Positions 10,275-58,663 of a stretch of DNA of 59,907 nucleotides are shown here, piece after piece. The stretch is from positions 1 through 59,907 of the IMG/VR virus record IMGVR_UViG_3300033141_002124; one strand, 5' to 3'. The stretch comes from a virus (lineage: Duplodnaviria; Caudoviricetes). The translations under genes and the position numbers were made by a program. Under the pieces are notes generated by a model, which did no database searches, was not told the origin of the DNA, and worked only from the letters and a program-made list of their open reading frames with translations. Position 1 is the stretch's first letter. Each line of letters begins with the position of its first letter.

Positions 10275-10643
10275 TTATGGATAAAATTTTCTCACAAGTG
10301 TATTATATTCTGATTTCGATATCCCCAATATTTTCTGAACTCTTTTAAGTCTGCGATTATTAAGAAGTACAGCACTTAATAAATAAAAAACAAGTATTGC
10401 AAGTATAATCGAATAAATGATTGTTGGTATTGCAATGAACGTCCATGATGCATTGAATACTGTTCCAAAGAAACCCAAAAGGAATAGACCAAGTAAAATG
10501 AATGTCAAGTGATTACGAAGACTCATATATTCTTTCTCAGTTTCTTTCGAGAAATACTTAAATGCAAATTTAATCCAACCACTTGGAAGATGCTTTTTAT
10601 AGGCAGTATCAAATTGTCTCTTAGTTACTTTAGTTTCTGCCAT
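10275..10643 (-). CDS. Two-TM membrane protein (holin candidate)
   Basis: Two TM helices, basic C-terminus, adjacent to amidase. Confidence 0.5.
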   Translation of the reverse strand: MAETKVTKRQFDTAYKKHLPSGWIKFAFKYFSKETEKEYMSLRNHLTFILLGLFLLGFFGTVFNASWTFIAIPTIIYSIILAILVFYLLSAVLLNNRRLKRVQKILGISKSEYNTLVRKFYP

Positions 10644-32441: not shown

Positions 32442-35400
32442 TTAAAACTCACCTGTTCCAGAAATCTCATAAAATACATCATGAGTGTCTGGGTCACCAT
32501 ATGTGATATTTGATGTTTGACTTGTAGTATACCATGTAGGAATACTTGCCCATCTCCAACGTTCATCTTTAACATGTTGATTACCATCAACCCACGCATA
32601 AATAGCATTAAATCTAAGCACATATGTTCCTGTTGTTGGGATACTCCAATCAACTTCTGCATGTTTTGTATATGGTGAAAATACCTGTGATTCAACTAAT
32701 GTAGTTCCATTATATAATTTAAGTGCACCACCAAATCCTGTATCAAATTCATCAACACCAGTCCAATCCAGTGAAACAGTGAAACCAAATTCTGGTGGTG
32801 GTGGTGCGCTACCAGTTACAACGGTTTCAACATCACCATAACCAGTTTTAATGTTCGTGTCAAGTGGATAAAGACCGTTTTCAATAAATGCTCTGTAATA
32901 AGTTAATGTATTTGGTAATAATCCACTTGCGTTCGCAGTAAAGGGACTACCTGTATTTCCAATGTGATAGTCTTTTTTAACTGTCGAATTTGTATTTGTT
33001 ATCGTAAGACTTCCTGCTTGTGACGCATTTTGTGTGTAAACCATACCATATCTTAATATGTTCGAAGGAGTGCCAGCAACATAAGTATTATGTGGAGTAT
33101 CAAAACCAGTTCCACTAAGTAACATAAGTGGATTAGTGTCTGTTGTTACACTATATGCGACAGCAGGTTCTGTACCTATCATTGCTGTCCTTGGACTACC
33201 ATAATATGCAGTTCCACCAACAACCATATATGCACGATATTCATAAGTTGAATTGTAATCAAGTCCAGTAAGATTTGAAACATTGAAGTAATTAACCGAA
33301 AGCGGTCCTGCTGCTGGTGAAGATGGTTGATATGACCAAGGAAGTGATGGGATTTTTCTATATTGTATCGCATAATTTGATATATCTTCATATCTTACAA
33401 TATCAATACCACCAATATGTAATAATTGATTACCAACCACAGTACCTATCTTTGTCTCAATACTTGGGTCTGGTAATGGTGCTTGGGGTGTTGTGAATGA
33501 ACGTATATTACCAGTAGCACCAGTTGAAAGTGATTCGATAAACGCACGATAATCATACCAAGTATCATAAGCCAGTCCATCTAACGTCATACTGAAATTA
33601 TTGACCGTAAGTGCAGGATTAGGTGGGATTGTCTTTGATATTCTTGTCCAATTATCTTCCATTGTTTCTATTTCAAAATCAATTCCTTCTAATAAGTTTT
33701 CTAATCCAATTGGAAGTGCGTTACCATATGGATAGTAAGGATATTTTAGTTTATAATCAATACCATATTCAATAACCTCATTCCATCCTATAATGTTTTC
33801 ACCACCAGTTGTAAAACTACCCAACACACCCTGTGTTGTTTCAACATACAGTTGTGTGGGTGGAGGTGGAGGTGCGGGTGTTTCTTGAGCAATACTAAAT
33901 GTAGCACCATCAGTACCAAAATATTGCATTAACGGATTACCCCTTTTATCTATTGTTATTGACCCATTAGCATATAAATTTACACCTCTTTTATACCAAT
34001 GCTTCTGTTTCGTAAAAATACTGTTTCTAATTAATAACCCACCTCTTCTCAATATAATTGTTGCCGACAATAATTGGTCAACAAATCTCTGGAAGAAAGC
34101 ATTATATTTACTCAGGAACGGATATAGGTTCTGGAACGTATATCCATTAGATTGTAATGGGTCGTCATCTGGAAGAAGTGCTCTTTCCAAATATGTTTCA
34201 TATAATTTCAATATTGTTGGATACCAACCACCTTTAAAATCGGTAACAACTTTTCTATTTCTAACGTTTACCATTTTCCTCTGAACCAATTCGAGGAATT
34301 CCAAAAACGATAATTCACTAATATCACCAAGTCCAAACACATCATTTATAACTGGATTAAATGCTCCTGCTCCACCAACAATATAATATGCACTAATTAC
34401 AGTACCAAATCTAAGTCCTCTTGGTAAGAAAATCTCGTATGGATTCTGCACATTAACGTTATAATCAGTAATTGGTTCTAAAGCGATTCCATCAACTAAA
34501 AATTTAACATCACTTGCTTGATTTACTCTGTAATTAAGTTTATATACGTATTTGTTTGCGCTATTATTGAAATAAATCTTACTACTATTAAAACTATCGA
34601 TTCTAATTACTTCACTTCTTAAATTAATTTCATTCGTGTTCTCCACATGAAGATAAGAAATTTGCACATCGGGGTTCTGATTAAGATATGCAATAACATC
34701 TGGATTCTGAATAATAATTTGATTTGTTCCACCAGTCGAATTTGCTGGGTCAAGAATATAATCAGCAACGAATTGAGGCGTACCTTTAGTAAGTGCAATA
34801 CCGTTAATTGTTAATTGGACATCACCATGTGGAAAACTTGGTAACGGAATATATGTTCCTCCCAAAATTGCTTTAACACGTGTCACAATATAATCAACTG
34901 TCATTGTTAAACCAGTTAATGTTGTTGCACCTGAATTAGTAAATGTTACCTGAATCACGTCAGAAGGACGTGTTCCACCACTAAGTTCATATATTGTAAA
35001 ATATTTCCCATTTACTTCATAATCTGCTTGATATGTAATTCCTGATGTAGTTCCAGTAGTATTACCAGTTGAAGGAGCATTTAATAAAATTCCATTATAT
35101 CTTACTTCAAAATTACCCTGATGATTATAATCAAAAGGTAGTGAGAATGTATTACCTGTTTGTGGTAATGATGAAATGTTAACATATGAATATGGTAATG
35201 TGTATCCACTTGAGTTGGCAGCAAAATCTTTTTGAATATATTCATAAACATCATATTCAATACCACGTGCAGTATCAAGTGAAATATCGACTTCTTTGGT
35301 ATTAATCACCAATTTACTGTCTTCTTGATAATATTGTGGTGTTGTACTGTGAATTCTTGTAGTTGCTCCACTTTGTTCCCATGATTTCTTATTATCGGGT

Positions 35401-37067
35401 GTTTGTTTAAGATTGAACCCAGCCATACGAAATACATCGAGATATGCCTGACCACTATCACTATTACCACTGAGTTGAAAATAGAAATCATTGGTTTCCA
35501 ATGGTGCAACAGGATATCCTTCGGTATCATACGGTAATGAATTTGAAGGAAAATCAGCTTGTGCGAGAGATACGGTATTTGGATTAATCTTACCATCTAC
35601 GGTATATACGTATTCTGTGATGTTAATGAAAGGTTCTGGAATACCAATTAACAAGAACATTGATTTTATTGCTTGACGAGTACCTTTTGATTTCCAAAAA
35701 TAACTTGTGTTATTAATAATTCTTCTCCAGAGTTCAATATCAATTTCTGCTGGTAAGATATTCTCATTTAAATTTCTTTCCGTATCATCTACAGTTAAAA
35801 ATCCTTCAACTAATTCACTTTCATTCACCAACGAAAAATAATCCCAACCAAAGGTATTTGCCATATTCTTTATTAATTGGTCAGGTATGTTATTTAATTT
35901 ATTATATGTAACCTTATTAATGTTAACCAATGAATCAATAAACTGTCTGAGTTGGTCAAATTCTCTTCCATATAATCTCAGTAGTTTAGGTATTTTACCA
36001 TCATCAGTATAGTCATACATTTTAAGTGAATCAGGTGTTAAGAATCTTGCAATTAAATCAGTTTTTATTTTATCATATTTCTCAGCAATAGTCAATACAA
36101 TTTTCAAAAATCTTTGATATGTTGGTGTATTGACATCAATATTATATTTATCACTGGTTGTCCAGAGAATTTGCGAATCACTATAAATAATTTTACCGTC
36201 TTCAAGCTGTGTTGGGTTTTTTAAGGTGAACACAAATCCATCAGTATTATCTCTTTCTGAAACCATATTTTGTTCATAACTATTAAGGAATGCTCGGAAT
36301 TCTTCAAAAGTAACATTATTTGGTCTGATATGATAATCAATATTAGCAGTAGTTCCAGTTCCCATTAATGCAAAAGGATTGCCTTCGACCTGTAATTTCA
36401 AATGGTTATTCATTGAAATTGTTGTTCCAGTATAGTCAAGAGAACTATTTACAGTATTTCCAGTATAACCAACAATTATAAATAATGTATCTGGTTCAAG
36501 ACTCGACCAAATGACATACTTTTCATATGAATCATTTAAGTTTTTTAACTCATTATCATCAGGTATACTCGTATTACCATCATTAATAACTAAACCAAAG
36601 GTATTAATAGTTGACTCCGTTGGAACATAAAATGTCGAGACATTCGAAACAATATCATAGTTAAGTCCTTTATACGTTGGATTTCCACCTATTTCTTTTT
36701 GTGAATTAGCGAACAACGACCCCGGGTATGCCAAAATCACATTCTGAATACTTGTTCTAAGAAATTCATATGCCGACCCATATCTAACAAAAGTATTTAA
36801 ATCTGATTTATCGAGATTCAATACGGCATTTGTTGTATAGTCATGAATTATTTCAGACTGTATTTCTGAAACATTAAGTGTTTCTAATGTAACTGGACGA
36901 ACAAATGAACTCAAAGAATTGGTGTAATCAATAGTTACCTTATTATCAAAGTTCGTTGTAACGAAAAACTTTCCAAAAGAAAATATTGTATTGGATGGGG
37001 TATCATTAAAATACTCCCCATTTAAATTCCCATTAAGTTGTGTTTTTATTACTTTTACCTTTGCCAC
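32442..37067 (-). CDS. Large baseplate wedge/fibre protein with FN3-like C-terminal repeats
   Basis: 1541 aa; KSKGTRQAIKSMF (tail protein I/gp7-like); repeated L..(D/N)T.Y.YRA(F/Y) FN3 signatures. Confidence 0.7.
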   Translation of the reverse strand: MAKVKVIKTQLNGNLNGEYFNDTPSNTIFSFGKFFVTTNFDNKVTIDYTNSLSSFVRPVTLETLNVSEIQSEIIHDYTTNAVLNLDKSDLNTFVRYGSAYEFLRTSIQNVILAYPGSLFANSQKEIGGNPTYKGLNYDIVSNVSTFYVPTESTINTFGLVINDGNTSIPDDNELKNLNDSYEKYVIWSSLEPDTLFIIVGYTGNTVNSSLDYTGTTISMNNHLKLQVEGNPFALMGTGTTANIDYHIRPNNVTFEEFRAFLNSYEQNMVSERDNTDGFVFTLKNPTQLEDGKIIYSDSQILWTTSDKYNIDVNTPTYQRFLKIVLTIAEKYDKIKTDLIARFLTPDSLKMYDYTDDGKIPKLLRLYGREFDQLRQFIDSLVNINKVTYNKLNNIPDQLIKNMANTFGWDYFSLVNESELVEGFLTVDDTERNLNENILPAEIDIELWRRIINNTSYFWKSKGTRQAIKSMFLLIGIPEPFINITEYVYTVDGKINPNTVSLAQADFPSNSLPYDTEGYPVAPLETNDFYFQLSGNSDSGQAYLDVFRMAGFNLKQTPDNKKSWEQSGATTRIHSTTPQYYQEDSKLVINTKEVDISLDTARGIEYDVYEYIQKDFAANSSGYTLPYSYVNISSLPQTGNTFSLPFDYNHQGNFEVRYNGILLNAPSTGNTTGTTSGITYQADYEVNGKYFTIYELSGGTRPSDVIQVTFTNSGATTLTGLTMTVDYIVTRVKAILGGTYIPLPSFPHGDVQLTINGIALTKGTPQFVADYILDPANSTGGTNQIIIQNPDVIAYLNQNPDVQISYLHVENTNEINLRSEVIRIDSFNSSKIYFNNSANKYVYKLNYRVNQASDVKFLVDGIALEPITDYNVNVQNPYEIFLPRGLRFGTVISAYYIVGGAGAFNPVINDVFGLGDISELSFLEFLELVQRKMVNVRNRKVVTDFKGGWYPTILKLYETYLERALLPDDDPLQSNGYTFQNLYPFLSKYNAFFQRFVDQLLSATIILRRGGLLIRNSIFTKQKHWYKRGVNLYANGSITIDKRGNPLMQYFGTDGATFSIAQETPAPPPPPTQLYVETTQGVLGSFTTGGENIIGWNEVIEYGIDYKLKYPYYPYGNALPIGLENLLEGIDFEIETMEDNWTRISKTIPPNPALTVNNFSMTLDGLAYDTWYDYRAFIESLSTGATGNIRSFTTPQAPLPDPSIETKIGTVVGNQLLHIGGIDIVRYEDISNYAIQYRKIPSLPWSYQPSSPAAGPLSVNYFNVSNLTGLDYNSTYEYRAYMVVGGTAYYGSPRTAMIGTEPAVAYSVTTDTNPLMLLSGTGFDTPHNTYVAGTPSNILRYGMVYTQNASQAGSLTITNTNSTVKKDYHIGNTGSPFTANASGLLPNTLTYYRAFIENGLYPLDTNIKTGYGDVETVVTGSAPPPPEFGFTVSLDWTGVDEFDTGFGGALKLYNGTTLVESQVFSPYTKHAEVDWSIPTTGTYVLRFNAIYAWVDGNQHVKDERWRWASIPTWYTTSQTSNITYGDPDTHDVFYEISGTGEF

Positions 37068-40809: not shown

Positions 40810-41073
40810 TTAATATAAAAATTTATCACCATTATTATCAACAAATACATTACCTTCACTATCCACCAAATAAAATGTTTCTGATGGTGGAACAGGTGGT
40901 ACTGGTGGAATTGGTTCACTGTATGCATCCATAAATCCTAAGTCATGACCAACCTGTTTCAACCCGATTTTAACGTAATAAATAACACTTAAATCGGGTA
41001 TTATAATAGTACCACCAGTAATTGTTGTTCCAGTGGTTACTGCTTGTAATATTGTCTTTTTCAGTACTTCCAT
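40810..41073 (-). CDS. Small structural protein
   Basis: 87 aa; Pro-rich linker and terminal YLVDSEGNVFVDNNGDKFL. Confidence 0.55.
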   Translation of the reverse strand: MEVLKKTILQAVTTGTTITGGTIIIPDLSVIYYVKIGLKQVGHDLGFMDAYSEPIPPVPPVPPSETFYLVDSEGNVFVDNNGDKFLY

Positions 41074-42920
41074 TAAGTAACATTCTTTCTCAATAATACT
41101 TTAATATCTTTTTCAGGATATTTGATTTCGAACATCGAATCCTGAGTTGAATAAATCGTATTATTCTCAATCTTTATTTCACCAGTGCTGGTATTTGTAA
41201 TTCCTTGTGCAATACTGTTAGTTGAATATTGGTCACCGACTTTATTAAATACCTTAATTCCAATAATATTTATCACACCATTGGCTTCCAGAATTTGCTT
41301 TTCTAATCTCCCAAGAAAAATGTCTTGATTCATTTCATGTGTGTCGATATCAAGATACTCAGTAACGAGTGAAATAACACTGTTTGCAATTTGATTATCT
41401 GCTGTATTCTCAACATATACATCGATTTCGAACGCCAAATTATATATCTTACCGTCTTTAATTTCAACATAATCATTAACCATCCTATATTGTGTCAGGT
41501 ATTCAGCAATATTTGTTTTTAATAATGAGTTACTGGTATTTGATAACTTACCGTCTTCACCAATACCCAATATTGAAATCAAAACTTTATTGTTTATTTT
41601 AAAAGCGTTCGCACGATATGGAGAACCATACTCCCCGGGCATTTTATAAACCTGTAACAAATAATCGGTAAGTGTCACATCTCTATTTTGACTGGCAAAA
41701 TTATATTTAATTAATTGTCTGATTTGTTCCGTACTTAAACCATCGTTTCCACCAATTGCTGGAATCGGGTTCGTTGTTTGTAAACTTCTTTGAACTTGTT
41801 GATTAATATCTTGACGAGAACCATTTACTTTTAAAGTATATGAACCAAGTTGTGTTAGAACATCTGAACCAATGTTAGAAGCAATCCCACCACCAGTTCT
41901 ATATTTAACAAATAACGTATAATTTGCTTGGAGTTTTTCACCCAATGCTGTGTTATTTAAAAAATTTTCAAGGAAATAACGATTACTAACACCTTCTTTC
42001 AAGAAACCATCTCGAAAAGCATTAACATCACTATCACCAGAACCAAATGTTAATTTACAAAAACCTTTAGGAGTATATTCCTTTATAAATTTTTTCGTAA
42101 TATCAACCCATCTCGCTGCTTTGATATTATTTGTTGTGGTATTTGCACTTGAACTCAAACCATCTTCAATGAAGACACGTTGCTGCGCCAGATAATCAAC
42201 TTCAAAATATCTACTATTAAAATCATTAAAATCTCCAGTGTCTGGATTTGTTGTATAATTAGTACCTTCTAAAAGTATAATACTTTCAATTTCCAACACA
42301 TCTGGGTCTGGTAATGTTATTGCAAAAAATGGTATCACATCGGTTGTGCTAATAATCTTCTTATAGATGCTTGTGCCTCCATTTATAACCACTTCTCTTT
42401 TTGTTATAGTATATGACTCAGGAATTCCGTTAGTGTTCAGATTTGGAATAATACTACGATTAGGGTCACCAAGACTACTAACAAGGGATTTCCAGTCAAT
42501 ATTTTGTTGTATTTCAAATATCTTACCACCACCAAGAACTTGTGCACCTGCTTCTAAAACAGGATAATATGTGGCATCTGGGGTATTCCCAAGTACTGGA
42601 ACAATAACACTAAAATCAACAACAGTAACACTTGGTCTACGAGCAGGAATATTGAATCCCATGTTTTTTGCAATGTTTAAAATACTCGCCCTTTGTTGTG
42701 CATATTGTAATTGAGTCTCTTGAAATGCTCTATCGGTGTTAACACTAAGATTATTACTTACACCAGCATTTAGGTCGATAAGCATTGCACCAACACTTGA
42801 ATCAGTGAAATCACTAAGGACTTCGGGATACATTTGTCTGATTAATGCAATTAGGTCTGTTCTAATTTCTCCGAAAGTTCTGCTTCCGTATTGAACTACA
42901 TTTGTCGTTTCTGTTGCCAT
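41073..42920 (-). CDS. Baseplate wedge protein (T4 gp6 / baseplate J-like)
   Basis: RTF.EIR..L, DF..SS.G..LIDL.A, AQ.R.SI..IA..MG, Y..GGG..SN, GG.D, QNR.VT..DY. Confidence 0.85.
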   Translation of the reverse strand: MATETTNVVQYGSRTFGEIRTDLIALIRQMYPEVLSDFTDSSVGAMLIDLNAGVSNNLSVNTDRAFQETQLQYAQQRASILNIAKNMGFNIPARRPSVTVVDFSVIVPVLGNTPDATYYPVLEAGAQVLGGGKIFEIQQNIDWKSLVSSLGDPNRSIIPNLNTNGIPESYTITKREVVINGGTSIYKKIISTTDVIPFFAITLPDPDVLEIESIILLEGTNYTTNPDTGDFNDFNSRYFEVDYLAQQRVFIEDGLSSSANTTTNNIKAARWVDITKKFIKEYTPKGFCKLTFGSGDSDVNAFRDGFLKEGVSNRYFLENFLNNTALGEKLQANYTLFVKYRTGGGIASNIGSDVLTQLGSYTLKVNGSRQDINQQVQRSLQTTNPIPAIGGNDGLSTEQIRQLIKYNFASQNRDVTLTDYLLQVYKMPGEYGSPYRANAFKINNKVLISILGIGEDGKLSNTSNSLLKTNIAEYLTQYRMVNDYVEIKDGKIYNLAFEIDVYVENTADNQIANSVISLVTEYLDIDTHEMNQDIFLGRLEKQILEANGVINIIGIKVFNKVGDQYSTNSIAQGITNTSTGEIKIENNTIYSTQDSMFEIKYPEKDIKVLLRKNVT

Positions 42921-42930
42921 GTTTTATATT

Positions 42931-43329
42931 TTAAAAATTTAAATCAATATTACCTTGTTCCGTTAATGAACCCTCAGTATATACAAATTGAACACTCACA
43001 TTTAATTGAGTTTCAGGTATTGGTTGACCATCCTCAGTTTCATTCCAATTAAAACGTACTGAAGTAATTTTAACTTCTGGAATATATAATGCCACTGTGT
43101 TTCTAATCTCTTCTTCAACATCAGTTGCAGTTAATTGGTCGTTAGGTTCAAATATATATTTCAATAAATTTGTACCGTAATCTGACTCATAATATCTCTG
43201 ACCTTTTTGGGTTAATAGAAGTAACAATAAGTTAGAACTGTATGAATCTTTACTTACCTGATTCATTTGAATAAAACTTCTTGTTTCGTTATCGTCTTTA
43301 AACGGAAATGTGATATTATACGAATTCAT
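42931..43329 (-). CDS. Baseplate gp25-like (GPW/gp25) protein
   Basis: NL..LLLT.KG.R.....YGT.L...IFEP; ATG 43329; precedes gp6-like gene. Confidence 0.85.
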   Translation of the reverse strand: MNSYNITFPFKDDNETRSFIQMNQVSKDSYSSNLLLLLLTQKGQRYYESDYGTNLLKYIFEPNDQLTATDVEEEIRNTVALYIPEVKITSVRFNWNETEDGQPIPETQLNVSVQFVYTEGSLTEQGNIDLNF

Positions 43330-43343
43330 TATTATTGATTTCC

Positions 43344-43353
43344 TATAAATACT
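43344..43353 (-). promoter_or_regulatory. Late-type motif AGTATTTATA
   Basis: 14 nt upstream of ATG 43329, heading the baseplate operon. Confidence 0.7.
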
Positions 43354-43361
43354 TATAAACA

Positions 43362-43395
43362 AAAAAATCCCGACAAATTACTGTCGGGATTTTTT
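43362..43395 (-). terminator. Rho-independent terminator
   Basis: AAAAAATCCCGACA/TGTCGGGATTTTTT stem. Confidence 0.85.
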
Positions 43396-48415: not shown

Positions 48416-49009
48416 TTATTTAAATTTTATGATTTCCTCTTGAATGATATTCAATAATTTATTTGTTGAATTGAAATTAACCACACCTTCACCGATAAGT
48501 GGACGAATACTACCCTTATCAACAAAATTCAATGTGTAGGTCACATCATCAGATAACTTGTTTTTGATTTTGGTGTACTCAGCAATCTTTTCAGCATTCC
48601 TATCCATGAAATCATCATACACAACAATCTCTTTCAAATCTTGATTATAATTCTCGATTCTCAATATAATATCACCTTTATCTTCACGACCTCTTTTCGT
48701 AATAAGGTCATCGACAGTAATTCCATTCAGTTTTAAAATATTTTCAAGTTCAGGACGCAGTTTCTCCATACGAGAAGTCAGAATAATCGTACTGGTATCA
48801 GGGTCAGCCATGTCTGTTTGAAGTTTTGCAAGAATGTTTGGGAATGGTTTGATTTCAAATACATCGGTGTCAAGACTTTCTCTGCGCCCCCACCATCCAA
48901 CGTGTGGATATGGTTGACCCATTTTCTCTTCCCATTGTACTTTTCCTGTTTCTGGTTCTGGGGAATCAATTAGTGTTCCATCAAAATCATATACTGCCAA
49001 TCTTTTCAT
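48416..49009 (-). CDS. HAD-superfamily phosphatase (Swiss-army-knife RNA-repair-like)
   Basis: YDFDGTL.DSP, GWW, LTSR, K, YDD motifs. Confidence 0.8.
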   Translation of the reverse strand: MKRLAVYDFDGTLIDSPEPETGKVQWEEKMGQPYPHVGWWGRRESLDTDVFEIKPFPNILAKLQTDMADPDTSTIILTSRMEKLRPELENILKLNGITVDDLITKRGREDKGDIILRIENYNQDLKEIVVYDDFMDRNAEKIAEYTKIKNKLSDDVTYTLNFVDKGSIRPLIGEGVVNFNSTNKLLNIIQEEIIKFK

Positions 49010-49520: not shown

Positions 49521-52500
49521 TTATTCTTCACTTACTTTTCCAGTTAAATTCAATGGAAACCCAAGAGGCTTCCAGTCTTTCAGTTTATTTGACATAAATG
49601 GTTTACCACCATCGGCACGATTAACAGCAATTGTTATGTGTGGTTTTGGATTATTAGAATGATAACCTTCAACACCAACTGCCATAACCAGTTCGTCCAT
49701 CGCATAATCAATCACTCTCAACGAAATCTCAATGTTCTTCTCCATATCTTCCTGCGCATCACTACCGTTTTCAAGTGCACCCATCATTATTGTCATGTGA
49801 TGTGCAACAACTTCCCAACCTTCAGGTATCATCGGACTTAAAACCTTAAGTAAACTGGCTCTTGATTTATCATCAAGAACAACTGCGCTATAACTCACTC
49901 TTTTCACTTCTTCTTCTCCTAATAAATTTCTATCTGTTAATGCCCAATATAATTCTTTCCTTAATTTTTCATCAACACTGAAGTCTTCATAATTATTCTG
50001 AAGAAATTCCAGTACTGATTCATGTGATGCATCATGATATCCACTATCTTTCCCACCTTGATTATTCCATTTATCGTATTCCTTAACAAAAAAATCAATA
50101 GTTACTTGCTTTCCATTGACATTCCATGTCTTTGGTTGTATACCATCGTAATTAGGGTATCCTTCTTGAATTTCCTTATCTTTCTCTCTCACCAAAGATA
50201 GTAATTCTTCTCGGTCATTCCTAACATTATCACTATAAACTTTAATTAATAATGATTTCAACATATCACCAATTTCCCTACCTTGTAATCCCATACTCAT
50301 TAAAACGTTTCCATCAATAGCGAGTTCACCAAAATCTTTTGGATATTTTCCAGTCAACAATTCCTGTGCTGCTCTTTTTATTGGTTCAGGTAAAATCTCA
50401 CTGTTTAATGTATTTGGTAAAATCTTGAAGATGTTATGTGCAAGAGTTCTTGCTGTAACATTATCTATATTATCATCGGCTTGAAATGCTTGTTGAAATG
50501 CTTTTAATTCTTTATATGTATCAATATCACATTTCAGTTTCGATTTACAATATTCCGCAATGTCTTGAACAAGATGATGTGCTGTAAGCCAAAGAAATTC
50601 TCCCATTGTTTTAACAACATTCCATTCTTTACCCATATATAAACCACCATCACCGTTAAATATTTGTGGGGTAAGTCCTAAATCTTTAAGTAAATACGCT
50701 CCTTCAAACGCATTACCTTTCTTAACAATTTTATCAAACTCAATTAATATCCTTTCAGGTGGAATTTCTTTAATTCGACCTGCATTCTTTTTAATCATTT
50801 CTCTGGTCTCGTCATCAATCTTGAAACCAAAACGTGCAGCGAATTGAACAGCACGTAACATTCTCAAAGGGTCATCACTAAATGCTTCTGGATTAACGAT
50901 ACGAATAATTTTATTTTTAAGGTCTTCTTGACCACCAAAAGGGTCAATTATATTACCATCAATATCTTTAGCAATCGCATTAATCGTAAAATCCCTGCGT
51001 TCCAAATCTTTTTCAAGTGGAAGTTCGTGGTCTGATGACACATCAAATCCTTTATGACCACCTTCACCAGTCGCTTTTTCAGTTCTTGGAATCGCCACAT
51101 CAATTTCTTCTGATGCACCTTGTGGCTTAAATTTTAACACACCAAATTGTTTACCCACTGCGTCAACTTTTCCATATTTTGACATGAGTGTACCTAACTT
51201 ATCCATTGGAATGCCTGTCACAAGAATATCAAGGTCTTTACTTTCTTTACCTAAAAACTCATCACGTACAGCACCACCAACGCTAAATATCTTACCGCCA
51301 AGTTGTTCGACCTCTTCTTTAAAAGGTAAGTCTTGTAATGACATTATATTCTCATTCATATCGGGTACAAGACTACTAAAATATTCTGAGACTTCCAAAT
51401 CATCTTCATTCACAGAACCAAATTCCAAATTATTAATGTCGCCTTGATTACAAGCAACACTGGTATTACCCAAACCTGCAAGCTGACATTTCCTCTTTAC
51501 TTTAACGGTTTTTGAACCAGTACCAAAAGATTTGTCTCTTTCGATTAATGCGTTATCACCATTAATCTTATTATCATAATATGTATATAATCTTCTCGTT
51601 AATTTTTTCTTATTATCAGCATTCAAATTTCGAATAAATTCTCCATTAAATGGTTTATTATGCTCTATTGAATCTTGAAACAATTTTGAAATGAAAACAT
51701 TAAAGTCTGAATATTTTTCATATCTTTTTTTATTAGCATGTATATTTTTTAATCCTTCGAGATAATATGCATTATATTCTTCATCTCTATTATAATATGA
51801 ATCGTTTGATGATTTGTAGGTATCACTATATTTAGTATCATCCAGATAATGGACAAATTCGTGGACAAATGTATCTTCGTTCACCCAAGATGCAAATCTA
51901 ATTCGGGCAAAATGTATATCCGATTCGACATTTTGTTTTGGTGGTTCGTCACTAAATGATTGTCGCTTCTCTAATATAAAAAAACAAAGTGTTTTTGTTT
52001 TAGGGTCAAAAAATGCCCTATTATTTTTCATTAAAGGAAAAAATGCTATTTGTAAATCAATTATACTTATTTGGTTTATATTAAATCCGACACCACTAAA
52101 CATTCTTTCACCATTCGTAGTATTGAATTCAAGTTCAATACTTTCAAATTTAATGTTATTAATATTCTCTTTAATTTTCTTATATAAATTCTTCCCTAAA
52201 TTAGTGGTCTTTATATCAGAACCAAAATCTTCTCCTAACATATATTCGTCATCGGTTGCATCTCCTTTAACATGATTATATTCAAGGTCTTCATACATCG
52301 CAACATTAGCATCGAGGTCATTATTAATGCTTGGTGAAGTATCGTTGGTATTGTAAGGGGGAAAACCGTCTTGTCCAACATCACTATCTGTACTGAATTT
52401 AGCACTACCGTCTTCATCTACTTCGACACCCATTTTTTCAGCACCATGAGGTTGCATAAAAAAATCTGTAAATCCAACATCAAAGAATCCAATTACTCCA

Positions 52501-54812
52501 CTTGGTTTATATCCAAGATTTTCTGGATTATAAAAATCATAACTATCAATCCCATGTTCTCTGAGTTCTTCAACGATTCTTAAAATACTAAAAAAGAATT
52601 CTCCGTCTTGACTGTTCTTTTTAAAATAGTTATCAACTTTACTTTTATCAATTGCGTCATCATTATATTGATGACCATCCAAATATGAATCCAATGCTTC
52701 TTTATAATCGGTATCAAATATATTCTTGAAAACGTAATCAAGTCTGTCATACATTCGTTTAAAATTGGCTTCATCGGGAACGAGTTTTTCTAAAATAATC
52801 GCATATGTTTTCCATTCTCCCTCTGGTATGTTTTCTGGGGTTACCTCAAACACACGATAAACATCTGCAATATATTTAAGTTTTTTACCAACCAGTTTCA
52901 GATTCTCATAAGCCTCACTATTATCTTTTGTGATTTTCAATACTTTATTATCCCCAATATCGTATGCAACACCAATTGTACCATGTCCAAGATATTTAGG
53001 TTCTTGAATACCTAACTTAGTTGTAATTCTATTAGCAATTCTATCCGCTTTATCTCTTGGGTAATCTTCTTCGAGTTGTTCTTCAGTAATGTTTTCAGGT
53101 AATTGAATAACATCATCATCACCAATATTTGGTTCATCAACACCATAATAACCACCAGTGTCAAAGAATTTTAAAACACCGTCTTTATATCCAAGATTTC
53201 TTTTTTCAACATAGTCTTTTGATTTAATTCCATATCCCAATAATTCTTTGCGAATATTTAAAATACCAACAAGAAACTCATATGCTGCTTGCCTATCGGT
53301 TTGACTAACATTTGCTGCTGGATTATCAGTCAATACATGTTTTGCTATTTCAAGCATCTGATTATAATCAAATCTCTTAGGAATTCTTATTGAAGATAAA
53401 ATATCAGTATATCCCATTCCTGCTGGTTGAATTTTCTCTATATCATCATCAAATTTTCTGAATTTCTCAAGTGGTTTCTCATTAACATTTTCTTGCATAA
53501 TAACAAAAATAGATTTATTTGTAGCTGTATCAAGAACCTTATATAAATTAAAAATTGTTGCAATGTTTTGTGGTCTTACTCTCAATAATTTTGATGCAGC
53601 ATCAGCTTCACTAACATCCGTAGTTAATTTCATTACGAGATTATCATTTATTTGATAAGCAAAACCATTCGCACCACCACCAATATATTTTGGTTGTGTC
53701 AGACTTAATTTATTGGCAATCTCTCTCGCCAATTCATCAGCATAATTTCTATCAGTTAATGTATCGGGGTCAACAGCAGGTATATCTTCATTAATAACAT
53801 AGCTTTCACTTAATAATGGGTCTCTATTATAGAATCCTCGTCTAATAAGATATTCTTGTAACTTCAATAAGTTCCCGTAAAACTGTTCTTTATTATCTAC
53901 GTGATTCAGTGTTTCTCTTATGTTATTTACACATTCATGGAAACTATCAGCCAGTACAGAAATACCTTCCACTGATTTGTTAGGATATTTATCACGTTTC
54001 GAAACCAGATTAACGAAACCTTCATTAATAACTGCATTACTATTATCACCACCATCACTAACACTGTAAGGCATTTGTGCCCACATACCTGTTCTAATGT
54101 CTTGTCCACCACCAGCATCGCTTAATATGTCATCATTACCATCAGCATAATTGTAGAGTTCATACATCTGATATCTATTCCTCTTCTTTCTATCAGGACT
54201 ATAATGGGTATCATAAACTTCATCATTAAGACCGTAATCAGTTAAAACAATTGCTGGTTGTCCATCACGAAGAACCTCACCATAACTACTTGGTCTTCCC
54301 ATATCACCAGCATTTTGACCGTAATTGGCTATAAAATTACTTAAATCTTGTGCAAACTCGTTCTCGTAAAGAAACTCTTCTTCTTCACGAGTTATGTAGT
54401 TCTCTTCAAATCTTTTATTTTGTCCTTTACTTTGTACTTCATAATTTATTAAAAAATATCCCAATATATCGAGATTCGGAATTTCTGTTAATTCTTCAAT
54501 TCGTTTCTTTGTAACTTTTTTTGCCTTTTCCGCAATCAACCAAGTGTCATCATCTGCACTATCAAATACTTCAGTTACGATATGTTGAGTATCACGATAA
54601 TAACCAGCACCTGCTTCAGCACCATTCTGTGCAACGCCTTTGGCGTTCATTGCAAGTTTTAGTACCTTCTCACCATCAATATCATACACTCTTCTGCCAG
54701 TACCACTACCAATTCTTGGTAATCTTTCATCGGCATATCTCATCCTACCAGCATAGGAATTTATATTCAGAAATTCTGGTAAGAAATTTTGTTTAAATTC
54801 ATCATAAGTCAT
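49521..54812 (-). CDS. Multidomain polyprotein: 3 protein-kinase-like domains, zincin, CCA-adding/poly(A)-pol nucleotidyltransferase, 2H phosphoesterase
   Basis: Kinase motif sets IGSGTG/VLK/DYG, IGGGANG/VMK/NLG/DTG, LGHGTIG/VLK/NLG/DVG; HEFVH; VGGAVRD-DLD-RRDFTINA-DPLRMLRA; HHMT and PHIT. Confidence 0.88.
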   Translation of the reverse strand: MTYDEFKQNFLPEFLNINSYAGRMRYADERLPRIGSGTGRRVYDIDGEKVLKLAMNAKGVAQNGAEAGAGYYRDTQHIVTEVFDSADDDTWLIAEKAKKVTKKRIEELTEIPNLDILGYFLINYEVQSKGQNKRFEENYITREEEEFLYENEFAQDLSNFIANYGQNAGDMGRPSSYGEVLRDGQPAIVLTDYGLNDEVYDTHYSPDRKKRNRYQMYELYNYADGNDDILSDAGGGQDIRTGMWAQMPYSVSDGGDNSNAVINEGFVNLVSKRDKYPNKSVEGISVLADSFHECVNNIRETLNHVDNKEQFYGNLLKLQEYLIRRGFYNRDPLLSESYVINEDIPAVDPDTLTDRNYADELAREIANKLSLTQPKYIGGGANGFAYQINDNLVMKLTTDVSEADAASKLLRVRPQNIATIFNLYKVLDTATNKSIFVIMQENVNEKPLEKFRKFDDDIEKIQPAGMGYTDILSSIRIPKRFDYNQMLEIAKHVLTDNPAANVSQTDRQAAYEFLVGILNIRKELLGYGIKSKDYVEKRNLGYKDGVLKFFDTGGYYGVDEPNIGDDDVIQLPENITEEQLEEDYPRDKADRIANRITTKLGIQEPKYLGHGTIGVAYDIGDNKVLKITKDNSEAYENLKLVGKKLKYIADVYRVFEVTPENIPEGEWKTYAIILEKLVPDEANFKRMYDRLDYVFKNIFDTDYKEALDSYLDGHQYNDDAIDKSKVDNYFKKNSQDGEFFFSILRIVEELREHGIDSYDFYNPENLGYKPSGVIGFFDVGFTDFFMQPHGAEKMGVEVDEDGSAKFSTDSDVGQDGFPPYNTNDTSPSINNDLDANVAMYEDLEYNHVKGDATDDEYMLGEDFGSDIKTTNLGKNLYKKIKENINNIKFESIELEFNTTNGERMFSGVGFNINQISIIDLQIAFFPLMKNNRAFFDPKTKTLCFFILEKRQSFSDEPPKQNVESDIHFARIRFASWVNEDTFVHEFVHYLDDTKYSDTYKSSNDSYYNRDEEYNAYYLEGLKNIHANKKRYEKYSDFNVFISKLFQDSIEHNKPFNGEFIRNLNADNKKKLTRRLYTYYDNKINGDNALIERDKSFGTGSKTVKVKRKCQLAGLGNTSVACNQGDINNLEFGSVNEDDLEVSEYFSSLVPDMNENIMSLQDLPFKEEVEQLGGKIFSVGGAVRDEFLGKESKDLDILVTGIPMDKLGTLMSKYGKVDAVGKQFGVLKFKPQGASEEIDVAIPRTEKATGEGGHKGFDVSSDHELPLEKDLERRDFTINAIAKDIDGNIIDPFGGQEDLKNKIIRIVNPEAFSDDPLRMLRAVQFAARFGFKIDDETREMIKKNAGRIKEIPPERILIEFDKIVKKGNAFEGAYLLKDLGLTPQIFNGDGGLYMGKEWNVVKTMGEFLWLTAHHLVQDIAEYCKSKLKCDIDTYKELKAFQQAFQADDNIDNVTARTLAHNIFKILPNTLNSEILPEPIKRAAQELLTGKYPKDFGELAIDGNVLMSMGLQGREIGDMLKSLLIKVYSDNVRNDREELLSLVREKDKEIQEGYPNYDGIQPKTWNVNGKQVTIDFFVKEYDKWNNQGGKDSGYHDASHESVLEFLQNNYEDFSVDEKLRKELYWALTDRNLLGEEEVKRVSYSAVVLDDKSRASLLKVLSPMIPEGWEVVAHHMTIMMGALENGSDAQEDMEKNIEISLRVIDYAMDELVMAVGVEGYHSNNPKPHITIAVNRADGGKPFMSNKLKDWKPLGFPLNLTGKVSEE

Positions 54813-54831
54813 ATTACGAATATATTATATT

Positions 54832-54840
54832 CATAAATAC
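54832..54840 (-). promoter_or_regulatory. Late-type motif variant GTATTTATG
   Basis: 19 nt upstream of polyprotein ATG, after a hairpin at about 54856-54881. Confidence 0.55.
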
Positions 54841-54871
54841 AGAATTAATAGGAAAAAAAGCGGAATGATTA

Positions 54872-55585
54872 TTACGCTTTTACTTTGCTTTTATCTCGGA
54901 TTTCTTTAATTGTTTCAATAACCACAGATTTGATTAAATCTTTGTTCTCATTTAAAACTTCTTGAATTCTTTCAATGGCATACATTTCAATTATCGTACC
55001 CTTGATAGCTTCTTCAAAGACAGTACCAAGATTTTCATCAAGATAACCATGAACAACATTTTTCACATTTTCAACCAATGCTACTTCATTTATTTGCATT
55101 GTTGCACCAGCAGGTGCTGCAACAGTAGGTGAGCCAGCAGGTGCTGAAGTCAAATATTGTGTTCCGTTATAATTTACAGCAGGTGGGGTTTCTCCAGCAG
55201 GAGCATTACCTTGAAAATTACTAATACTTTCAGCAAGAGTTTGTTTTCTTTTCTTTTCAAGGTCAGCAAATAACTGTTCATCTCTTTCAGGTGATGGTGC
55301 TGCAACTGTGGGGGTTGCAACTGCCGTAGGTGCAGTTTCGTTAACAGTATGCACTTTGACACCACCATGTTTCTCAGCAACTTTATTTTCAACGACTTTA
55401 ATTAGTGTGCTTGCAGGATTCTCTTGTCCTGATTTAAGTGAGGCTTGTAAACCATGAAGGAAAACATCTCGTGGTGCTACACCTGTGCCAACAGATTCAC
55501 CTAATTGTGAAGGGATGATATTTCGATTTTGTTTCTCCTTATGGATTTCATCCTTCAATTTATTTAAGTCAAGTTTCTTTGCCAT
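54872..55585 (-). CDS. Putative virion head/core protein
   Basis: LGES, VNET, LAES, INE motifs with Ala/Pro linkers; late motif upstream. Confidence 0.6.
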   Translation of the reverse strand: MAKKLDLNKLKDEIHKEKQNRNIIPSQLGESVGTGVAPRDVFLHGLQASLKSGQENPASTLIKVVENKVAEKHGGVKVHTVNETAPTAVATPTVAAPSPERDEQLFADLEKKRKQTLAESISNFQGNAPAGETPPAVNYNGTQYLTSAPAGSPTVAAPAGATMQINEVALVENVKNVVHGYLDENLGTVFEEAIKGTIIEMYAIERIQEVLNENKDLIKSVVIETIKEIRDKSKVKA

Positions 55586-55608: not shown

Positions 55609-55618
55609 TATAAATACT
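55609..55618 (-). promoter_or_regulatory. Late-type motif AGTATTTATA
   Basis: Upstream of ATG 55585. Confidence 0.65.
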
Positions 55619-55621
55619 CTG

Positions 55622-56578
55622 TTATTTGAAAAAAGTCATCTTTTTATGTGGAATTGATGGAGCATTTGTTTCTTTTATTTCTGGTTCTGGTTGATTTGCA
55701 GCGTCTTGTGCCTTCATTCTTAAATCTCTCTGTGTTTTATTTTTCGCATCATTGAAGAATTTATCATCAGCAGGTGCATTTTTTTTAACCAGACTATCGT
55801 ATAAATACGGTAATGACCCAACAATTGCATTATCGGGTATATTTTGTTTATCCTTATCTTTTGCCAACATTAATTGAAAGTTATTCTTGTCATCAATAAC
55901 AACCAGATAATTTCCATGAGCAGTTTTTTGTACTCGACTTGCAACATCTCGTAATTTAACGACATCATCAGCAGTAATTTGTTTACTATTCTTATTACCT
56001 CTTCTAATACTATCCCATTTTTCTTTGTCTCGGTCTGCTCTTGAAACCTTGTCAATTTCTTGGTCTTTATCGTATTTCATGTCGAAATCAGGTTCTGTTT
56101 TCGTTGAAACATATGCCTTAACACTTGTCATATCGTCATCATCACCTTCATGATAACCGGGCGGTATCATCGGAAGACCGTTTTTATCATTAAATTTTTT
56201 ACCAGTTGGATATATTTTTGAAATCTTGTCTACGTTGAACATTCTCCAACCCGGTTTCGCACCCTCACGGTCACTCCAATAGTCATGACCCATACTATCT
56301 GGACGGGTTGCTCTATTACTGAAATGCCAACTATTTTTTGCATTGTCTTGCCATGCTCTGAGAACTATATGTCCAGCAGCATTTGTGCCAAGCACATATG
56401 GTCTCACCGTGCGATAACCAGTTGCATTTTTACCTTCTTCATTATCACCATCGTAATAAAGATAAATCCACTCATGATTGTTAATCGCATCAACAATACC
56501 ACTTTCGCCAACGCCTTCAGTAAGAAGATGACGAAAATTTTTTATGTTTTCGAATAATATTTTTAGTTCGCTTTTCAT
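55622..56578 (-). CDS. WYL-domain protein
   Basis: I..AI....IYLYY...R.VRPY.LG...LRAW...GWRMFNVDKI. Confidence 0.75.
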   Translation of the reverse strand: MKSELKILFENIKNFRHLLTEGVGESGIVDAINNHEWIYLYYDGDNEEGKNATGYRTVRPYVLGTNAAGHIVLRAWQDNAKNSWHFSNRATRPDSMGHDYWSDREGAKPGWRMFNVDKISKIYPTGKKFNDKNGLPMIPPGYHEGDDDDMTSVKAYVSTKTEPDFDMKYDKDQEIDKVSRADRDKEKWDSIRRGNKNSKQITADDVVKLRDVASRVQKTAHGNYLVVIDDKNNFQLMLAKDKDKQNIPDNAIVGSLPYLYDSLVKKNAPADDKFFNDAKNKTQRDLRMKAQDAANQPEPEIKETNAPSIPHKKMTFFK

Positions 56579-57159
56579 TATACTCTATCACTTCCAGCAC
56601 AATATTCATTCCCGGGGGTGTAAAGATTAGCATTCTTTGCAATTGAACAACCTCTGCTTGCAAAATCAATACATGTACCAGCTTGTTCACCCTGTTCTGG
56701 TTCTCTACCTTTATCATCTCCGTCTGCAATTGTATCACCATGCCCGGGGAGATATTGATTATTTGGAGTGTAACCATCAGCATTTTTTGACATTAATTTA
56801 TTTCTCATTTCAATGTCTTTATTAGTTCCAATTGAACCACCTTGTGCTTCAGGGTCTCTACCTTTACAATCACCATCAGAGATAGTGTCTTCGTGACTCG
56901 GACCGTACTCATCTCCATAAGTATAACCATCGGCATTCCTTGCCATTAATTTATTTCTTGTTTCGATATCGATATTAGTTCCAATTGTACCACCATCTCT
57001 TTCAGGGTCTCTACCTCTATTGTCACCATCAGAAATTGTATCTGGGGTTGTAGGAAGATATTCCTTACCGGGTATGTATCCATCAGCGTTTTTTGCTATT
57101 GAACACTTTCTGAAATCGGCACTACTTGCTAATAATCTGCTGCTTTCTTCGTCTGCCAT
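56578..57159 (-). CDS. Tandem-repeat protein (3+ copies of an approximately 51-aa unit)
   Basis: Unit (K/R)NADGY..G.EY.P...DTISDGD.KGRDPE..GG.IGTN.DIE.RNKLM. Confidence 0.8.
   Translation of the reverse strand: MADEESSRLLASSADFRKCSIAKNADGYIPGKEYLPTTPDTISDGDNRGRDPERDGGTIGTNIDIETRNKLMARNADGYTYGDEYGPSHEDTISDGDCKGRDPEAQGGSIGTNKDIEMRNKLMSKNADGYTPNNQYLPGHGDTIADGDDKGREPEQGEQAGTCIDFASRGCSIAKNANLYTPGNEYCAGSDRV
56600..57100 (-). repeat. Degenerate approximately 153-bp coding tandem repeat
   Basis: e.g. TTCAGGGTCTCTACCT, CATTAATTTATTTCT and ATTAGTTCCAATTG recur at a 153-bp period. Confidence 0.75.
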
Positions 57160-57191: not shown

Positions 57192-57200
57192 TATAAATAC
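57192..57200 (-). promoter_or_regulatory. Late-type motif GTATTTATA
   Basis: Upstream of ATG 57159. Confidence 0.6.
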
Positions 57201-57203
57201 AAA

Positions 57204-58001
57204 TTATTCATATTTTTTAAATACGAGTGTTATGTATTCAATTAAATGAGGAACGATATTAAGATATTCCATCTCACTTACATCATACCAACCATAATTA
57301 GTATTTTCATCATCAAGAGTAATGTCCGTTGGGTCATCCTCGTATCTGCAAGCAAATATGTGTTCAATACTATCAGCATGTCTTTCAATACTAAATGATT
57401 TGGTAAATTTCTTAAGTTCTAAACCAGTTTCTTCCTCAATTTCTCTTTCAACTGCTTGTTGTGGTGTTTCGCCTTTATCAATACCACCACCAACAAGACC
57501 CCATTTACTTGGCATCCAAGGTGCTTTCTCACCTCTTTTCAATAAAAGGATTTTATTATCTTTATTTACAATAACCGCAACACTATTTTTTTGTTTTTCT
57601 TTTTTCTCCTTTTTTTCGGCTTCATTCATCACATCATTATGTTGTCTATTCACATTAAATGCTTTCAAATCCGAAGTCATATCATTGGTTATATCACGTC
57701 TAACTTCTCTACTGGTTTTCACAGCATTTCTGTCTTGATTTAACGTGGTTTCAATAAACGCTTTCATTGGTTGACCACCAGCAAGTGTGAATTGTGTGTT
57801 ATCACCAGTTTGTGGATTAAAGTAGTCAAAATAATTCTTCAATCTCTTCATTGCTTGATAGGTGATAACACCGTTCTTAAGCATGAATTTAGCTCGTTTT
57901 ACGCCCTCTCCTTGCGGATTGGATACCAAGGCTGTCTGGATACCTTTTAACACGTCTGAGGGTATCCTATACGATTTATCATATAGTTCTTGGTTAGCCA
58001 T
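57204..58001 (-). CDS. Two-domain protein with C-terminal Nudix hydrolase
   Basis: Nudix box GGIDKGETPQQAVEREIEEETG; ILLLKR. Confidence 0.88.
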   Translation of the reverse strand: MANQELYDKSYRIPSDVLKGIQTALVSNPQGEGVKRAKFMLKNGVITYQAMKRLKNYFDYFNPQTGDNTQFTLAGGQPMKAFIETTLNQDRNAVKTSREVRRDITNDMTSDLKAFNVNRQHNDVMNEAEKKEKKEKQKNSVAVIVNKDNKILLLKRGEKAPWMPSKWGLVGGGIDKGETPQQAVEREIEEETGLELKKFTKSFSIERHADSIEHIFACRYEDDPTDITLDDENTNYGWYDVSEMEYLNIVPHLIEYITLVFKKYE

Positions 58002-58653: not shown

Positions 58654-58663
58654 TATAAATACT
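58654..58663 (-). promoter_or_regulatory. Late-type motif AGTATTTATA
   Basis: 15 nt upstream of ATG 58638. Confidence 0.65.

Follow-up and report, generated by a model that had tools for sequence, protein, structure and literature searches.

An uninterrupted open reading frame (ORF) of 1763 aa occupies positions 49521..54812 on the minus strand of a 59,907-nt stretch of virus DNA (IMG/VR record IMGVR_UViG_3300033141_002124, Caudoviricetes), referred to here as the window. The window is a 59.9-kb virus contig estimated to represent ~20% of a genome, with a G+C content of 30 to 36% and nearly all genes on the minus strand. An identical or near-identical protein is recorded on three contigs. An earlier reading of the DNA alone (the original prediction) proposed that the gene encodes six enzymatic modules separated by hydrophobic-x-Glu motifs and that the protein is made late, packaged into the prohead, cut there by a prohead protease, and injected with the DNA. 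The features of the gene and its upstream region, all on the minus strand, are as follows.

54853..54880, minus: terminator-like hairpin that overlaps the upstream gene's stop codon, with AAAGCG and CGCTTT around a 12-nt loop, followed by a T run; read directly
54832..54840, minus: promoter-like motif GTATTTATG, one mismatch from GTATTTATA; TATTTAT lies 27 nt before the ATG
54774..54812, minus: N-terminal peptide MTYDEFKQNFLPE, aa 1-13, ending L-P-E; conserved in relatives, resembles the T4 IPIII capsid targeting sequence
54159..54773, minus: kinase-like module 1 (K1), aa 14-218; Gly loop G35/G37/G39, K52, D170, D192; phrog_4301 and structure model
54021..54158, minus: acidic segment, aa 219-264 (ADGNDDILSD...GMW); conserved, predicted disordered, bounded by sites after MYE218 and INE264
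53787..54020, minus: small helical module, aa 265-342, with sites after LSE336 and INE342; model and alignment
53067..53786, minus: kinase-like module 2 (K2), aa 343-582; K395, E402, D533, N539, D551; ends at LPE573 and LEE582
52413..53066, minus: kinase-like module 3 (K3), aa 583-800; K626, E633, D759, N765, D778; ends at VDE800
52230..52412, minus: acidic segment, aa 801-861; conserved, predicted disordered, ends at MYE841 and LGE861
51540..52229, minus: zincin-like cassette, aa 862-1091; H984-E985-x-x-H988 ... E1012; ends at LIE1091
51405..51539, minus: 45-aa basic Cys module, aa 1092-1136 (KCxLxGLGNTSxACNQGD); ends at VNE1136
51351..51404, minus: linker, aa 1137-1154, with sites after VSE1143 and MNE1154
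50163..51350, minus: predicted class II tRNA nucleotidyltransferase (CCA-adding type), aa 1155-1550; HMM, PDB, and motif evidence; ends at IQE1550
49914..50162, minus: "mid" module, aa 1551-1633, fold not matched to any family; ends at LGE1633
49524..49913, minus: 2H phosphoesterase, aa 1634-1763; HxT at 1672-1674 and 1725-1727; ends at VSE1762, followed by E

Enzyme modules

A word-indexed search recovered at least 229 relatives of the protein (969 to 3086 aa), and the family comparisons reported here draw on the best 120 of these (987 to 2903 aa, on contigs of up to 366 kb). The relatives are assigned to uncultivated jumbo phages with predicted T4-type heads. Each of the six modules named in the original prediction (three kinases, a zincin, a nucleotidyltransferase, and a 2H phosphoesterase) was supported by matches to hidden Markov models (HMMs) or PDB entries, by HxT motifs, by a structure model with Foldseek matches, or by an invariant HExxH...E. 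The helical unit (265-342), the two acidic segments, the Cys module (1092-1136), and the 83-aa mid module (1551-1633) can be added to that list. The Cys module has two near-invariant Cys residues and is duplicated in relatives P0041 and P0108. Neither Pfam nor NCBIfam yielded a family for the mid module, which also had no usable match in the Atlas, and the segment from residue 205 to 345 had no Pfam or NCBIfam matches.

The statement in the original prediction that no protein with such an architecture had been described was too strong. Iyer et al. (2017) defined a class of "polyvalent proteins," whose domains include truncated kinases, zincins, 2H, GNAT, and ART, and predicted packaging and injection of these proteins (PMC5512222). 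We are highly confident both of the architecture given above and of the membership of the protein in this class.

The only strong HMM matches in the protein were those of the nucleotidyltransferase, which has head and RNA-binding domains and matched PF01743 (83.4 bits; cut-off, 23) and PF12627 (52.6 bits; cut-off, 22) over residues 1176 to 1385. Its best PDB and NCBIfam matches are CCA-adding enzymes: solved structures at an E value of 2.4e-31 and Cca models spanning residues 1163 to 1546, with all NCBIfam equivalog scores below the cut-off (163.9 versus 290). PHROG tRNA nucleotidyltransferase families were matched as well. G1179, G1180, R1183, D1184, the RRD at 1272-1274, D1313, D1314, and R1317 are conserved in no fewer than 112 of 113 to 114 relatives; D1193 and D1195 (DxD) are also present, and residues 1313-1317 form DDxxR. 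Residues 1155 to 1550 are confidently predicted to be a class II tRNA nucleotidyltransferase.

Both HxT motifs of the 2H module are invariant among the aligned relatives (H1672/T1674 in 65/65, H1725/T1727 in 64/64). The sole HMM match of the window's 2H module was below threshold (tRNA_lig_CPD, 19.8 bits versus a cut-off of 23); a free-standing orthologue in G001, a complete 349-kb relative that is syntenic with the window around the gene, passes the same cut-off with 24.2 bits. We infer that the nucleotidyltransferase and the 2H module, as a putative cyclic phosphodiesterase, form a tRNA 3'-end repair pair. A specific likeness of the window's 2H module to T4 Acb1 was considered and rejected because only a PHIT motif is common to it and T4 57B (E value, 0.062) and no Acb1 HMM matched.

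When searched as single modules, K1 to K3 gave no Pfam or NCBIfam matches, and the Kinase-PolyVal model (PF18762) did not match any of them at an E value of ≤10. An AlphaFold model of residues 1 to 865, made with 42 collinear relatives, had a mean predicted local distance difference test (pLDDT) score of 77.6. Its folded units, at approximately residues 1-205, 264-330, 355-572, and 586-797, are separated by segments with a pLDDT below 50. A Foldseek search with the whole model gave 15 matches with E values of ≤0.001; JNK, p38, APH(2''), and methylthioribose (MTR) kinase were matched with probabilities of 0.98 to 1.00 and E values of ~1e-4, the matched unit being unspecified. K2 and K3 are paralogues of each other, with 31% identity (E value, 6e-21), and K1 is weakly like either of them, the common stretch being the Gly loop and Lys. 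Key residues are nearly invariant: K395, N539, and D551 of K2 are kept in 110/110 relatives and D533 in 108/110; K626, N765, and D778 of K3 are each kept in 110/110 and D759 in 101/110; and K52 and D192 of K1 are kept in 104/104 and D170 in 103/104, with Ser175 at the position of the Asn in K2 and K3. Each kinase-like unit in the model stops right after the DxG, and polyvalent-protein kinases lack the C-terminal subdomain through the same type of truncation (PMC5512222). As modeled, the three units are truncated protein-kinase-like folds.

Module boundaries and exchangeable cassettes

All ten of the hydrophobic-x-Glu motifs quoted in the original prediction are present in the protein: VINEG at residue 261, LLSES at 333, VINED at 339, QLEED at 579, MLGED at 858, LIER at 1089, VNED at 977 and 1134, MNEN at 1152, IQEG at 1548, and LGEE at 1631. 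The pattern [ILVM]-x-Glu was denser in linkers than in folded cores, with 9 occurrences in 131 low-pLDDT residues versus 21 in 734 core residues (6.9 versus 2.9 per 100; Fisher P = 0.027), and shuffling within linkers gave 2.1 expected motifs versus 6 observed (P = 0.004). In the model of residues 1 to 865, the junction sites lie in or beside the low-confidence segments 212-260, 336-342, 574-582, and 799-865.

The signal obtained by comparing relatives is much stronger than that in the single sequence. Homology blocks across the 120 relatives start and stop at the motifs, which bears out their proposed role as punctuation between modules. Of 737 internal boundaries of high-scoring segment pairs (HSPs) with 119 relatives, 40.6% fell within 1 residue of the Glu of an [ILVM]-x-Glu, compared with 8.6% when positions were random. 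Among the control tripeptide classes, the nine without [ILVM]-x-Glu gave values at or near their own null (highest observed, 8%); the two all-inclusive classes were also somewhat enriched (any tripeptide ending in Glu, 0.50 versus 0.23; ending in Asp, 0.38 versus 0.25). HSP ends peaked at E861 (42; the commonest break), E1136/1137 (56), E573/574 (25), and E1550 (18), and starts peaked at residues 1089-1092 (66) and 1152-1156 (53). An all-against-all comparison gave 27.8% versus 7.6% over 91,004 boundaries. Family-wide and with no re-centring, the last residue at 453 well-supported HSP ends was Glu in 58% of cases (background, 8.2%) and position -2 was I, L, V, or M in 64% (background, 23.7%), position -1 being variable; among 335 HSP starts, 60% began with I, L, V, or M and 52% had Glu at position +2. 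The hydrophobic P3 and the Glu at P1 of the sites at 218, 264, 573, 800, 861, 1136, 1633, and 1762 are kept in 93 to 99% of 63 to 128 relatives, and P2 varies.

What lies between the boundaries differs among relatives. BLAST comparison with the best 120 relatives revealed conserved K1, helical, K2, and K3 blocks, with K1 or K2 sometimes absent, as well as a conserved Cys module, nucleotidyltransferase (in 114/120 by precomputed Pfam annotation), mid module, and 2H module. These blocks are separated by unrelated inserts, and relatives differ by swapped-in cassettes, including ART-PolyVal (PF18760; 12), GNAT (PF13508; 15), Acb1 (9), ParB (2), and NleE (2). These predicted cassettes are typical counter-defence or host-modifying domains.

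It is conceivable, if improbable, that the junction tripeptides are the footprints of cassette-shuffling recombination, that is, shared joints with no role in proteolysis. Duplicated linkers do flank cassettes, as in relative P0007, in which the segment equivalent to residues 1137 to 1151 is duplicated on both sides of an insert, and the doubling of the Cys module in two relatives is of the same kind. However, P2 varies freely, as does the choice of hydrophobic residue at P3, so that the junctions are conserved at the protein level, at two positions, and not at the DNA level.

The zincin-like module is one of the exchangeable cassettes. The HEFVH motif named in the original prediction is present, at residue 984. 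Among 1.84 billion representatives the module has 79 relatives, which are mostly free-standing proteins of 220 to 260 aa, and H984, E985, H988, and E1012 are invariant in 56/56 aligned members. The structure model (pLDDT, 91.7) has the helix-sheet-helix-helix order of zincins, with HExxH on helix 118-134 (module numbering) and the third-ligand Glu on helix 149-165, after a sheet. There were no Pfam or NCBIfam matches, a PDB profile search with the zincin alignment had no matches, and the MPTase-PolyVal model (PF18818) did not match the window's zincin at an E value of ≤10. Foldseek found no PDB matches at an E value of ≤0.001 and only uncharacterised phage proteins in BFVD; the Atlas gave viral hypothetical clusters, with LPD23 below threshold at 0.89. 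These results identify a zincin-like module with predicted peptidase activity that forms a family of its own.

Iyer et al. proposed that polyvalent proteins are processed mainly by zincin peptidases, which they name as the main processing hub, and mention assemblin-like peptidase domains fused at C termini (PMC5512222). Self-processing of the window protein by its own zincin-like module would follow that proposal, and the invariant HExxH...E and the high-confidence fold speak for it. We consider it very unlikely, nevertheless, because among relatives of the whole protein only two have any alignment that covers the HExxH region, with HExxH kept in neither (0/2), yet the junction motifs are kept in nearly all relatives. 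The zincin is therefore itself a rare cassette. That most members of its family are free-standing and that it does not match MPTase-PolyVal also argue against self-processing.

Promoter, N terminus, and genomic context

The original prediction that a one-mismatch copy of the motif heading the baseplate operon precedes the gene was accurate: the copy is GTATTTATG, compared with GTATTTATA just upstream of the gp25-like baseplate gene. When the T4 late -10 word TATAAATA is reverse complemented and lengthened by one base, it gives GTATTTATA. The window contains 16 copies of GTATTTATA versus 1.6 expected; 15 are on the coding (minus) strand, mostly 7 to 40 nt before starts, and the sites include 43344-43352, 55609-55617, 57192-57200, and 58654-58662. 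In the 11/11 related loci with an upstream flank, TATTTAT is kept ~23 to 35 nt before the ATG (at -27 in most). Hairpins of other sequence with a T run are found at the same place as the terminator-like hairpin in at least L002, L006, L007, and L008; the window's hairpin was unlisted by the terminator scan because its 12-nt loop lies outside the scan's loop limit of 3 to 8. A scan for sigma-70 promoters was not above shuffled sequences (38 versus 29.9 ± 5.6). In G001, copies of the motif lie ahead of the portal gene (two) and the prohead-protease gene and are absent ahead of the DNA-polymerase ORF; the genome has 80 copies versus 27 for a control pattern. This distribution fits a late promoter, the one early-type gene being a thin control.

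Several genes near copies of the motif were also noted. The baseplate wedge genes at 41073-43362 (minus) are gp6-like (615 aa) and gp25-like (143 aa), and their nearest cultivated relatives are Flavobacterium phages and a Microcystis phage at 28% identity. An SbcC-like/SbcD-like pair (PHROG 77/35725 and 704) is found at 18828-22169 and 26615-28099 (minus), with GTATTTATA 80 nt upstream of the SbcD-like gene. Copies of GTATTTATA are likewise found ahead of two genes with no Pfam or PHROG matches, at 32442-37067 (1541 aa) and 30712-32409 (565 aa), both minus.

The N-terminal sequence MTYDEFKQNFLPE is highly conserved in relatives and resembles the start of T4 IPIII, MKTYQEFIAE. The first ten residues of IPIII target proteins to the prohead, those important for targeting being residues 4 and 7 and those important for processing being residues 8 and 10, and T4 gp21 cleaves after L/I-X-E (PMC9026906). 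The residues favoured at the family's HSP ends match this gp21 specificity. The 16 relatives that lack K1 start 6 to 24 residues before the next [ILMF]-x-Glu site, which aligns with E218.

The complete relative G001 encodes T4-type head proteins. A Peptidase_S77 match (30.9 bits; cut-off, 27) points to a prohead protease of the gp21 type, and Gp23 (E value, 5e-64) and Portal_T4 (E value, 1.7e-63) were also matched, which supports the protease part of the original prediction for a syntenic phage. Peptidase_S77 was not matched in the 59.9-kb window, which is ~20% of a genome and in which control families also had no match. A scaffold-like protein adjoining the G001 protease is rich in V/I-x-E. 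The G001 protease gene (L013 1393-3294, minus) carries an intein-like insert of ~400 aa around which the Peptidase_S77 match is split; the insert begins with Cys after ...EADHPD, contains a LAGLIDADG-like block, and ends ...HWTGN before a Ser. A proposed maturation site in the G001 capsid protein, MINE/S, was set aside as a guess because the T4 gp23 cleavage-site region did not align N-terminally.

The gene occupies a fixed slot. Six upstream genes are in the same order in 11/11 loci with an upstream flank; on the downstream side, most of the six genes tested are kept in 9/9 loci with that flank, the flank genes having identities of 45 to 88%. In G001 the gene is split by a reverse-strand LAGLIDADG_3 gene (L012 13489-14493; E value, 1.4e-9) in a homing-endonuclease island of 20% G+C, leaving ORFs of 1163 aa and ~1030 aa, the second with its own GTATTTATA. 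A DNA search of a phage collection with the whole gene gave no matches. The protein matched 503 phage records, with the nucleotidyltransferase part matched in 40/40 of the matches listed; the N-terminal 870 aa matched only two Xanthomonas jumbo phages, over K1.

The genes flanking the slot encode a NUDIX hydrolase and a protein with a weak HAD_SAK_1 match; they are not head genes. The NUDIX hydrolase gene is at 57204-58001 (minus; PF00293; E value, 3.3e-20). The NUDIX part aligns in addition with profile positions 516-630 (of 794) of a PHROG "portal protein" family, phrog_15528, an indication that portal-NUDIX fusions exist elsewhere. The gene at 48416-49009 (minus; 197 aa) has weak matches to HAD_SAK_1 (21.4 bits; cut-off, 25.6) and to a polynucleotide-kinase PHROG and is kept just downstream of the polyvalent gene in nine loci. 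HAD_SAK_1 is an RNA-repair "Swiss Army Knife" phosphatase. The 193-aa protein encoded at 56578-57159 (minus) has an internal repeat of ~50 aa, its residues 1-85, 66-139, and 117-193 matching one stretch in relatives with a shorter version. Farther away, at 10643-13750 (minus), the sole match of a 1035-aa protein is to DUF3008 (aa 446-501; E value, 2.8e-11).

Proposed processing and packaging, and known systems

Our preferred reading is that the gene product is a polyvalent multi-enzyme protein, that the phage is an AT-rich, uncultivated jumbo phage whose head is of the T4 type, and that this protein would be cut and packaged, a mechanism to which we assign a probability of about 0.5 on comparative sequence evidence. 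The protein is organized like beads on a string, with a fixed N-terminal part, exchangeable cassettes, and a tRNA 3'-end repair pair, each bead being bounded by [I/L/V/M]-x-Glu. Expressed from a late-type promoter, it would enter the prohead, where a gp21-type prohead protease would cut after the junction Glu residues to release free enzymes and small peptides. The pieces would then travel with the DNA into the next host, to modify host proteins (the kinases) and to mend tRNA ends that have been damaged (the CCA/2H pair). Three observations support parts of the original interpretation, namely, the motifs as punctuation, a gp21-type protease in a relative, and the promoter motif ahead of that relative's portal and protease genes; its claim of a protein without described counterparts was too strong.

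Several observations weigh against cleavage and packaging. The linker enrichment within the protein is real but modest (P ~0.02 to 0.03), and, since the relatives share ancestry, the boundaries counted do not represent independent events. Late transcription is not proven because the promoter motif is common (16 copies in the window) and is also found ahead of the SbcD-like gene and the NUDIX operon. The window itself is without head genes, and the evidence for the protease comes from a relative whose polyvalent protein is 55% identical. At the N terminus, E13 is Glu in 77/104 relatives, and helix 3-16 is modeled, with a pLDDT of ~91, as part of the K1 fold. The pattern M-T-[YF]-x-E-F was found once per genome in G000 to G003, in this gene only. 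The candidate idea of a targeting peptide shared with other genes was rejected on that count, and there is thus no T4-like family that shares the putative targeting peptide. Homologues of K1 in Xanthomonas jumbo phages, including Xoo-sp13, are free-standing genes among non-structural genes. The 2H domain of G001 is a separate ORF of 127 aa (L012 18409-18792) that starts directly at the fold, without a propeptide, and the 2H domain can therefore be made outside the polyprotein. The free-standing 2H and K1 genes indicate that modules work as separate proteins, which fits cleavage and also shows that fusion is unneeded for function.

The last of these points also favour a serious, if less probable, alternative in which the protein is a cytoplasmic multi-enzyme "Swiss-army-knife" for RNA-end repair and host takeover. 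It would never be packaged, would act as one chain or be trimmed by another protease, and would carry [ILVM]-x-Glu as a mere convention for ending modules. The NUDIX and HAD_SAK_1 neighbours, the commonness of stand-alone CCA enzymes in phages (as seen in the 503 matching records and in the nucleotidyltransferase matches listed), and the modeling of the N-terminal helix within the K1 fold also favour this explanation. However, a two-position motif with a free P2, kept at 93 to 98% in poorly conserved or disordered linkers that flank unrelated cassettes, has the look of a protease site rather than of a structural cap. Moreover, exactly such a motif has just one known reader in T4-type phages, namely, the prohead protease, whose action takes place inside proheads, according to the account in PMC9026906.

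The preferred reading of cleavage and packaging can be taken a step further, although this extension is tentative. The locus may function as a plug-and-play delivery string, in which any cassette placed between two [I/L/V/M]-x-Glu sites would be carried into the prohead by the conserved N-terminal part, then freed by the head protease and injected. One hypervariable locus would in this way furnish a variable repertoire of ready-made counter-defence enzymes. The acidic peptides and the Cys module might tether the string to the scaffold or to DNA. If the cleavage and packaging are real, they would explain how jumbo phages quickly swap counter-defence enzymes at one locus and would supply a rule, taken from nature, by which foreign proteins could be loaded into large capsids.

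Individual modules have counterparts in well-known enzymes. Bacterial multifunctional Cca and the cyclic phosphodiesterase (CPDase) domain of Trl1 resemble the C-terminal part of the window protein in combining a CCA-adding nucleotidyltransferase with a function that removes 2',3'-cyclic or phosphate ends, and the best HMM of the 2H module is tRNA_lig_CPD. The healing activity of E. coli Cca is an HD domain, whereas the predicted healing activity here is a 2H domain, and the NCBIfam Cca equivalog score is 163.9 versus a cut-off of 290. T4 Acb1 (gene 57B), the anti-CBASS 2H phosphodiesterase, has the same 2H fold with HxT, and some relatives carry Acb1-model cassettes; unlike these, the window's 2H module has only the PHIT motif in common with Acb1. 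CCA enzymes and 2H domains of jumbo phages have been reviewed (PMC7824862).

The proposed mode of delivery resembles that of the internal T4 proteins IPI, IPII, and IPIII and of Alt. The likeness comprises T4-type head genes in the lineage, an M-(K)-T-Y-x-E-F N terminus ending in hydrophobic-x-Glu, hypervariable counter-defence cargo, and L/I-x-E specificity. In contrast, the T4 proteins are small, have a single function, and are cut only at their ends, whereas here one 200-kDa chain would give ~10 products, and only one gene per genome has such an N terminus. The ejection and inner-body proteins of the jumbo phages phiKZ and SPN3US are also head-internal proteins cut after x-x-Glu by a relative of gp21 (gp175/gp245) (PMC9026906). 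They differ in belonging to another lineage with another P3 preference, and the available text of PMC9026906 mentions no multi-enzyme polyprotein.

The closest comparison is with the polyvalent proteins. Their general concept, multi-enzyme proteins that are packaged and injected, is already published, and the apparent cutting mode is not described. In the literature searched we found no family whose modules are all delimited by sites of the prohead-protease type, no architecture of three kinases with CCA and 2H modules, and nothing specific on polyvalent proteins that are cut by a prohead protease or contain CCA enzymes; the supplementary lists of PMC5512222 may hold related proteins. The window protein differs from those described in that its kinases and zincin fail the Kinase-PolyVal and MPTase-PolyVal models. 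A class II CCA-type nucleotidyltransferase does not appear in the main text of PMC5512222, in which "CCA" has 0 occurrences (supplementary lists may differ), and the text available there does not describe [ILVM]-x-Glu punctuation or a role of a prohead protease at such sites. The window protein and its relatives are like them in having unrelated enzymes in one phage chain, kinases without the C-terminal subdomain, zincin, 2H, GNAT, ART, and ParB domains, cassette variability, and a predicted packaging and injection (PMC5512222), and the ART-PolyVal model itself is found in relatives of the window protein. For polyvalent proteins, a large class defined purely by computation, the family described here offers a precise, testable answer to how they may be processed and delivered. 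Each module boundary has a two-position motif that fits the specificity of a known protease, and a protease of this type is encoded in the lineage. With it, a putative tRNA 3'-end repair pair and three minimal kinases join the candidate proteins that are made in advance for infection.

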